Shown piece after piece: positions 1 through 1,123 of a DNA stretch of 2,565 bases. The stretch lies in NCBI RefSeq assembly GCF_003334305.1, contig NZ_QOWS01000054.1; one strand, written 5' to 3'. A model generated the notes under the pieces. The model made no database searches and was not told where the DNA came from. It saw only the letters and a program-made list of their open reading frames with translations. Position numbers and translations under genes: made by a program. Source of the DNA: Escherichia coli (GTDB lineage Bacteria; Pseudomonadota; Gammaproteobacteria; Enterobacterales; Enterobacteriaceae). Each line of letters begins with the position of its first letter. Position 1 is the first letter of the stretch.

Positions 1-657
1 GAGGAGAACCCGCATCACCTGCACCAGCCGTACCGGCTGCCGGGGCAGCAGTATGATAAGGAGTCGGGGCTGTACTATAACCGTCACCGGTACTACGATC
101 CGTTGCAGGGGCGGTATATCACCCCGGACCCGATTGGGTTGAGAGGTGGATGGAATATGTATCAGTATCCGTTGAATCCCATACAAGTGATAGACCCAAT
201 GGGGTTAGATGCGATTGAGAATATGACATCAGGTGGACTAATTTATGCCGTATCTGGTGTACCTGGATTGATTGCTGCAAACAGCATTACTAACAGTGCT
301 TACCAGTTCGGTTATGATATGGATGCTATTGTTGGCGGAGCTCATAATGGGGCCGCCGATGCAATGAGACATTGTTACTTGATGTGTCGAATGACTAAGA
401 CATTTGGATCAACAATAGCTGACGTGATAGGTAAAAATCATGAGGCGGCAGGGGATAGACAAGGTCAGCCAGCTAAAGAAAGAATCATGGATCTTAAAAA
501 TAACACTGTCGGTATTGCTTGTGGCGATTTTTCTGCCAAATGTAGCGATGCATGTATTGAAAAATATAACACTGGGCAACTCTTCGGGTTAGATGGTATA
601 AAAGCAGATAATCCAATAAAAGCAAAGCAAGGGAGTTCAGATGCTTCAAATTATTAG
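1..657 (+). CDS. rhsE: Rhs-family polymorphic toxin, 3' portion (5' end lies upstream of the window): terminus of the conserved RHS core followed by a variable C-terminal toxin domain
   Basis: Frame 1 is open from nt 1 with no stop until TAG at 655-657, so the gene starts upstream; the ORF-track start at 103 is only an internal TTG. Translation from nt 1 reads [69 protein letters not shown], the hallmark end of the RHS repeat-associated core (YD repeat, then the DPxGL demarcation). The first 200 nt are GC-rich (about 60% by eye) and composition drops immediately after DPMGL, as expected at an Rhs core/CT junction. The symbol is a tentative recollection of K-12 synteny (rhsE-ydcD-yncI-ydcC), not verified. 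Confidence 0.85.
193..207 (+). other. DPxGL motif (DPMGL) marking the boundary between the conserved Rhs core and the variable C-terminal toxin domain
   Basis: Codons 65-69 of the frame-1 translation encode D-P-M-G-L, preceded by the conserved PxxxxDPxGL context ([13 protein letters not shown]). In Rhs/YD-repeat proteins this motif delimits the core from the polymorphic CT and is associated with autoproteolytic release of the CT (established knowledge of the family). An upstream DPIGL at codons 43-47 belongs to the conserved core. Confidence 0.7.
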
Positions 658-1123
658 AGGCAAACTTGTCATTTTTTTAATTACCCTTTGTTTATTTGTT
701 GTTTACCTTGGGTTTGATAACAATTCAAATTCTGACATCGTATTTTATGGACATAAAACACCAAAGAGCGTTGAGATATATCTTTCTGAAAAAAATATTA
801 TTTATAAAATAATTAATGACCAAAAAATTAGTAGAGGGAATGGTCATTTTATAAGTATAATGGTTAATAATTACAGGACGCACTGTGGAGTGGTTGATAT
901 AAATCTTAATTTTTTCAATGATATTCTTTATAGCGTGCGATTAAAAAACATTAGTAAACTGGAGAATATGGAGTTCTGCGCTAAAAAACAACGGGTGTAT
1001 TTTAGTGATAAAAACAAGAAGGCTAGTTATAAAATAATTAATTATGGAGACTATTACGATGTTGATTATTATGATAACAATTTGAAAAATGAAGTTTTTG
1101 ACTGGATTGGTAAATGGTCATAA
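641..1123 (+). CDS. ydcD: Putative Rhs-toxin immunity protein (160 aa, AT-rich, N-terminal hydrophobic segment; uncharacterised)
   Basis: ATG at 641 is preceded by a good RBS (GGGAG at 631-635, 5-nt spacer). The ORF overlaps the toxin stop by 17 nt, the typical arrangement for a toxin/immunity pair. A 160-codon ORF in DNA this AT-rich (well under 30% GC by eye) is unlikely by chance. Residues about 8-25 ([18 protein letters not shown]) form a hydrophobic stretch after a positively charged start. The symbol is a tentative recollection of K-12 synteny; immunity function is inferred from position only. Confidence 0.7.

Follow-up and report, generated by a model that had tools for sequence, protein, structure and literature searches.

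YdcD as the probable exported immunity protein of a BteO-like DUF6973 toxin tip on an Escherichia coli Rhs effector

The stretch of DNA analysed here (the window, 2565 bp of Escherichia coli contig NZ_QOWS01000054.1) is the tail of an rhs element, and the gene in question is ydcD, a candidate immunity gene of the YdcD family that follows the toxin-encoding end of rhs. The window begins in the G+C-rich 3' end of the Rhs core (1–207), which is matched by the NCBIfam models RHS_core and Rhs_assc_core. The last part of the core, as read off the translation, is the demarcation motif PxxxxDPxGL (178–207). It is followed by the variable C-terminal toxin tip of Rhs, 149 amino acids encoded at 208–654 and closed by the TAG stop at 655–657. 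An earlier note on this DNA had reported that a 160-amino-acid open reading frame (ORF) overlaps the toxin stop by 17 nucleotides (nt). This ORF, ydcD, is present exactly as claimed, with an ATG start at 641 and its end at 1123, and the stop of the Rhs frame closes the 17-nt overlap. A Shine-Dalgarno-like sequence, AGGGAG, is located at 630–635, 5 nt ahead of the ATG and within the toxin reading frame. All of these features lie on the plus strand. From 55% in the Rhs core, the G+C content drops to about 43% for the tip and to 27% for the ORF, as is usual for an Rhs tip and immunity cassette that can be exchanged.

At a composition of 27% G+C the probability of meeting 160 consecutive sense codons by chance is about 1e-7, and in 2000 shuffles of the ORF segment the longest open run had a mean of 42 codons and a maximum of no more than 108. 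The product matches the NCBIfam family NF050020 (YdcD_fam) with 215.5 bits (E=3.8e-64, cut-off 65) in an alignment that spans protein residues 3–160 and profile positions 1–164. A single residue, K115T, distinguishes it from b1457 of K-12. The gene is annotated in 2465 of the 5426 complete E. coli genomes (about 45%), 2440 of the copies being at least 99% identical, and RefSeq uses the same ATG at 641 and the same rhs/ydcD arrangement. Residues 26–160 of YdcD have been crystallised (PDB 8WJ5, 'Double-wing domain of E. coli YdcD'), and this entry was the only one found when a YdcD profile was compared with the PDB. A Pfam scan of the protein yielded nothing above noise (DUF6337, E=0.03; Endonuc_Holl, E=0.11).

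Within ydcD a tract of seven A residues occupies 789–795. E. coli O157:H7 MB41-1 has A6 here, with a frameshift as the result, and RefSeq treats the gene as a pseudogene; at the yafV site of this strain it adjoins an Rhs that is truncated N-terminally. Many database entries named YdcD are 142 amino acids long and start with a stretch in an alternative frame that joins the ydcD frame near the A7 tract. They have the appearance of comparable frameshift alleles.

When YdcD, or the toxin tip by itself, was the query of a word-indexed protein search, almost solely E. coli sequences and frameshift fragments were obtained, and distant relatives were reached by an exhaustive representative search and a profile search. 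The exhaustive search revealed remote YdcD relatives at 20–35% identity (24–32% in a second comparison). The relatives all keep C82, G83, F91-F92, C113 and a C-terminal W...WS (W155...W159-S160). A YdcD-family gene was present at the toxin stop in all six loci in which an Rhs tip of the DUF6973 type (the family of the present tip, see below) is followed by a readable gene. Two of these loci are from E. coli, one each from Salmonella and Buttiauxella, and two are metagenome contigs, so that at least three genera plus metagenomes are represented. The overlap between toxin stop and YdcD start amounts to 17, 17, 8, 8, 5 and 1 nt in the six loci. Relatives that lie directly 3' of such a tip include P0029 (59% identity), P0082 (30%) and P0088 (26%), with overlaps of 17, 1 and 8 nt, respectively. 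The tip of Salmonella enterica, which stands after hcp-vgrG, overlaps by 8 nt a YdcD homologue of 28% identity (L010), and the Buttiauxella tip overlaps by 5 nt one of 29% identity (L011); both homologues (154–157 amino acids) have retained all invariant residues. The slot directly 3' of the tip is the canonical immunity position in the polymorphic toxin systems of the Rhs and contact-dependent growth inhibition (CDI) types. Preservation of the toxin-YdcD pair in six of six loci down to 26–30% identity is the pattern expected of a cognate pair, and it supports the proposal of the earlier note that the two genes form a toxin/immunity module with coupled translation.

The toxin tip (residue numbers are those of the frame-1 translation) matches the Pfam family DUF6973 (PF22322) with E=7.2e-12 over nt 286–525, and the same region of this model is matched by a segment of BteO with E=3.6e-14. 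BteO is a type VI secretion system (T6SS) effector of Bacteroides fragilis that causes cell elongation, blebbing and lysis, has no peptidoglycan-hydrolase activity and binds OmpA-C-like domains via a groove of helices alpha3 to alpha6 (PMC12541434). Each of the substitutions R143A, H144A, H167A, E168A, D187A and D191A abolishes its toxicity (PMC12541434). These six residues, which BteO needs for toxicity and for binding OmpA, align with R123, H124, H147, E148, E160 and D164 of the tip, five being identical and one a change from D to E. The conserved tip residues are encoded on the plus strand at 367–372 (R123-H124), 439–444 (H147-E148) and 490–492 (D164). All of 29 diverse DUF6973 proteins have the R, H, H and E, and nearly all have the D; invariant columns of R/H, H/E, Q, D and NN are common to the tip and the BteO-type proteins. 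With the tip as a single sequence, the best match in the PDB was the BteO structure 9UU0, which was weak (E=0.15); with a profile built of eight enterobacterial tips alone, 9UU0 was the sole significant match (E=1.6e-7). AlphaFold2 models the tip as all-helical with five helices, at a predicted local distance difference test (pLDDT) of 81. Five cysteines (125, 129, 174, 181 and 185) are invariant in the eight enterobacterial tips and absent from the BteO subgroup, which hints at an extracytoplasmic, disulfide-bonded domain, with which they would be compatible. A membrane-spanning segment was not found in the tip (best 17-residue Hessa sum +4.9 kcal/mol, best Kyte-Doolittle mean 1.34). It had been suggested that the toxin acts in the periplasm or at the inner membrane, and the DUF6973 homology lends support to this, as BteO shows toxicity only on delivery to the periplasm (PMC12541434). 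The RH...HE...D constellation could also be a catalytic site; the non-enzymatic mechanism is taken, by analogy, from the work on BteO (PMC12541434). That paper mentions neither Rhs nor DUF6973, and the link of E. coli Rhs tips to BteO appears to be undescribed in the literature searched.

The earlier note had drawn attention to the N-terminus of YdcD as a 17-residue hydrophobic segment. The segment is indeed there: L9–F25 (665–715) is an unbroken apolar run, with R6 and K8 before it and D26 after it, and together with the n-region M1–K8 it makes up the putative export signal (641–715). The position-independent Hessa insertion energies of its residues add up to -4.0 kcal/mol, and the Kyte-Doolittle mean reaches 2.36 in the best stretch of 19 residues. 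The flanking charges (KR/DE) are 2/0 (N-side) and 1/2 (C-side), and the acidic and polar stretch DNNSNSD follows the apolar run directly. Every full-length YdcD relative has an apolar N-terminus; basic residues precede it in 9 of the 11 family sequences (wherever such a flank exists) and acidic ones in none. The sequence of the segment itself is not conserved, which argues for selection on a physical property and not on particular residues. Downstream of the signal, a linker (residues 26–40, 716–760) leads to the globular alpha/beta 'double-wing' domain (residues 41–160, 761–1120), all on the plus strand. AlphaFold2 places a helix over residues 2–26 and gives a pLDDT below 50 at residues 27–31, and the chain in 8WJ5 aligns to residues 26–160 only, residues 1–25 being absent. 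Of the two invariant cysteines, C82 (884–886) is located in a beta-hairpin turn and C113 (977–979) in a helix. The disulfide predicted between them probably forms and fits a periplasmic location. From the sequence we infer that YdcD is exported via its N-terminal signal and that its globular domain faces the periplasm, either anchored or released by cleavage.

Which of these two states applies is a closer matter; the earlier note had favoured a signal anchor or transmembrane helix over a cleavable signal peptide. Instead of being tethered, YdcD could be a soluble, Sec-secreted periplasmic immunity protein with the same function, its signal peptide having been removed at S31|D32. The linker contains a sole candidate signal-peptidase I site, S29-N30-S31|D32, which complies with the (-3,-1) rule at a distance of 6 residues from the h-region. 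Cleavage would also agree with the apolar runs of 10–11 residues in the Salmonella homologue L010, P0088 and P0089, which are typical of cleaved signal peptides, with the classic SSA|S site of P0082, and with the statement that BtiO, the immunity protein of BteO, carries a signal peptide (PMC12541434). The h-region of E. coli YdcD, however, has 17 very hydrophobic residues within a continuous modelled helix, a length near the lower limit for a membrane span and above the 7–15 residues of a usual h-region. Moreover, the cleavage site is not a conserved feature of the family, since the only rule-compliant site of P0029 is SIG|FY at residue 34, not close to the apolar run, and P0077 has none. For E. 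coli YdcD an uncleaved anchor, which would be of type II (N-in, C-out), is given somewhat better than an even chance and a cleaved signal peptide perhaps one chance in three. As the domain would be periplasmic in both cases, the functional conclusion stands.

The best explanation of the locus, to which we assign a probability of roughly 0.7, is that a T6SS-associated Rhs effector carries a DUF6973 (BteO-like) toxin domain at its C-terminus and that ydcD encodes the cognate immunity protein of this domain. The immunity role of YdcD is our inference from the findings described above. The N-terminus would direct YdcD through Sec, so that the double-wing domain, stabilised by the predicted C82-C113 disulfide, would come to lie in the periplasm, where it would be tethered to the inner membrane by the signal anchor or freed by cleavage at S31|D32. 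There it would bind toxin tips injected by sister cells and cover the tip groove lined by R123/H124, H147/E148, E160 and D164. In this way the toxin would be kept off its envelope target, which by analogy with BteO might be OmpA or Pal, namely their OmpA-C-like domains that bind peptidoglycan. In K-12-like strains, which have lost the T6SS and possess only the rhsE pseudogene, the intact ydcD would serve as orphan immunity against T6SS-1-positive E. coli with this widespread toxin. A more specific proposal is made tentatively and has to be considered doubtful as a whole: the tip may be the E. coli member of the BteO class of non-enzymatic envelope toxins that bind OmpA-C-like domains of OmpA or Pal, YdcD may neutralise it by a means other than target mimicry, and ydcD of strains devoid of a T6SS may be a functional orphan immunity gene that shapes coexistence in the gut.

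A number of observations weigh against the proposed immunity function and its mechanism. The literature searched contains no functional study of, or experiment on, YdcD or this Rhs tip; a paper on 'RhsE' of enterohaemorrhagic E. coli concerns another immunity candidate of 61 amino acids and not YdcD. The topology of YdcD was called from a scan with the (-3,-1) rule and from simple scales of hydrophobicity and charge. When the model of the tip was compared with the PDB by Foldseek, no match had E<=0.001 and 9UU0 was not in the top 50, a negative result from a method for which small helical bundles are hard and from a library of which the membership of 9UU0 is not known. The homology to BteO is therefore claimed on sequence profiles alone. 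[quoted passage not shown] Finally, three remote homologues (P0077, P0078 and P0081) lack an adjacent DUF6973 toxin gene. P0081 (24–27% identity; L004, 6001–6498) stands by itself, flanked by truD and an eptA-like gene and without a toxin gene in the vicinity, in a neighbourhood of housekeeping genes (ftsB-ispDF-truD...surE-pcm-nlpD-rpoS). The stand-alone genes may be orphan immunity genes or a sign of another role, and of the comparative findings they count most against a function restricted to immunity.

If the latter held for YdcD too, it would be an exported envelope protein, for instance an accessory factor of the toxin or a general periplasmic protein, that reached its position by co-mobilisation. 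The three stand-alone homologues, one of them among housekeeping genes, speak for this possibility, which we nevertheless regard as unlikely. Orphan immunity genes are common in polymorphic toxin systems, YdcD occupies the canonical immunity slot, and the pair with its stop/start overlap has been kept in six loci while YdcD diverged to 26–30% identity. In addition, BtiO, which occupies the equivalent slot after BteO, has been shown to be an immunity protein (PMC12541434). The probability is lower still that YdcD is an integral-membrane immunity protein that acts inside the bilayer against a membrane-damaging (pore-forming or ionophore) toxin. Its single, strongly hydrophobic N-terminal helix would suit such a function, and immunity proteins embedded in the membrane occur with ionophoric colicins and with some CDI toxins. 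However, the tip has no membrane-spanning segment and belongs to the soluble, helical DUF6973/BteO family, and about 120 of the 160 residues of YdcD make up a globular, soluble domain that was crystallised by itself and that, unlike the helix, contains the conserved residues. The idea that the hydrophobic N-terminus is an annotation artefact due to a wrong start codon, or else a lipoprotein signal as the Cys17 within the apolar stretch might suggest, can practically be dismissed, because ATG 641 has a good Shine-Dalgarno sequence and is shared by RefSeq, no internal Met occurs before M74, the apolar N-terminus is found family-wide, I14-T15-L16-C17 has Leu at -1 where the lipobox tested, [LVI][ASTVI][GAS]C, requires Gly, Ala or Ser, Cys17 is absent from P0029, P0077, P0078 and most other relatives, and the family has no conserved lipobox.

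The surroundings of the pair were also inspected. Many E. coli chromosomes are 100% identical to the window. In strain 503025 the identical sequence closes a 1412-amino-acid Rhs protein with a DUF6531 N-terminus and RHS repeats, and the gene order is tssB ... hcp - vgrG - rhs - ydcD - ISAs1 (two copies) - yafV; from the position of that island we take this locus to be the T6SS-1 island. The rhsE(pseudogene)-ydcD-yncI-ydcC region of K-12 is 99.3% identical to the window. The cassette of tip, ydcD and ISAs1 thus has two sites in E. coli, at the rhsE pseudogene near ansP/pptA in K-12 and elsewhere in the T6SS island adjoining yafV. In the window, ydcD is followed by an ISAs1 (H-repeat) transposase pseudogene at 1304–2430, which resembles yncI and has a frameshift and an internal stop, and by the start of a second, tandem ISAs1-family (H-repeat) transposase that resembles ydcC (2533–2565). 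Between ydcD and the pseudogene a perfect inverted repeat with a 14-bp stem, ATGAAAATTGTGAT-GTAA-ATCACGATTTTCAT, is present at 1201–1232. It was flagged as terminator-like, yet contains just 3 G-C pairs; a terminator and a piece of an insertion sequence end are both conceivable. On the minus strand, a very hydrophobic antisense ORF of 61 amino acids at 1038–1223 overlaps ydcD over the last 86 nt of that gene. The annotation of K-12 names it 'protein YncO' (b4745), and other strains have it as a hypothetical protein.

Further small genes were seen around two of the YdcD relatives. P0078 (L003, 136–2462) is part of a run of small ORFs on the same strand, and the product of the ORF upstream of it, 167 amino acids long, starts with a signal-like hydrophobic segment; the run may be an array of exported immunity-like genes. 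At the locus of the relative with 59% identity (L005, 1003–1650), the next gene encodes a DUF4329 protein and overlaps the ydcD stop, and it is followed by an ORF of 100 amino acids. These two may constitute a second, orphan toxin/immunity cassette.

As ydcD is already annotated and structurally solved, and envelope-acting T6SS effectors with exported immunity are well known, the module is no new kind of system. About 45% of complete E. coli genomes, K-12 included, contain it, although no function has been described for either the toxin or ydcD. What is new is the assignment of a very common E. coli Rhs tip to the BteO family and, with it, the prediction of a concrete mechanism and target, namely periplasmic toxicity exerted through the groove of R123/H124, H147/E148 and D164 with OmpA or Pal as candidates. 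It is also new that the DUF6973 toxin family would have recruited two unrelated immunity folds, each exported independently. If true, a mechanism described so far only in Bacteroides would extend to the Enterobacteriaceae and to Rhs-delivered toxins, and the presence of an intact ydcD beside a dead rhs in a laboratory strain without T6SS would be explained. The placement in the BteO family provides a hypothesis that is cheaply testable in the best-studied bacterium.

The module can be compared with several known systems. In Dickeya, Enterobacter, Serratia and E. coli, the toxins of the classical Rhs-CT/RhsI pairs (Koskiniemi et al. 2013, as cited in PMC7216683) are nucleases, deaminases or ADP-ribosyltransferases. 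These pairs share with the present locus the PxxxxDPxGL demarcation, a variable AT-rich tip, a small immunity gene directly downstream and nearby H-repeat/ISAs1 elements. Classical RhsI proteins, whose toxins target nucleic acids or proteins of the cytoplasm, for that reason stay in the cytoplasm and lack an export signal, whereas YdcD has a predicted export signal or anchor. The logic of an envelope-acting effector paired with an immunity protein that is exported to the periplasm by Sec or as a lipoprotein is the same in Tse1-Tsi1, Tse3-Tsi3, Tae-Tai and Tle1-Tli1. Those effectors, however, are amidases, muramidases and lipases unrelated to DUF6973, they are mostly cargo and not Rhs tips, and their immunity proteins are unrelated to YdcD. 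Tli1 has been described as an outer-membrane lipoprotein (bioRxiv 10.1101/2024.03.05.583533). Also close is the double-wing fold of the C-terminal domain of MotA of phage T4 (PDB 5JLT). BteO-BtiO of the Bacteroides fragilis GA3 T6SS (PMC12541434; PDB 9UU0, 9UU1) has a DUF6973 toxin domain like the present locus, but BteO is a stand-alone protein of 294 amino acids with an N-terminal transmembrane helix of its own and a long C-terminal helical extension, whereas the toxin described here is the approximately 150-amino-acid tip of an Rhs cage protein. The enterobacterial tips have five invariant cysteines, of which BteO has none. In both systems the immunity gene lies directly downstream and overlaps the toxin gene, and both BtiO and YdcD appear to bear an export signal. 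The same arrangement is seen in the BteO homologue P0119, which is followed with a 19-nt overlap by a protein of 141 amino acids that matches BtiO (9UU1) with E=1.4e-31 and starts with a lipoprotein-type signal, ...LTSC.

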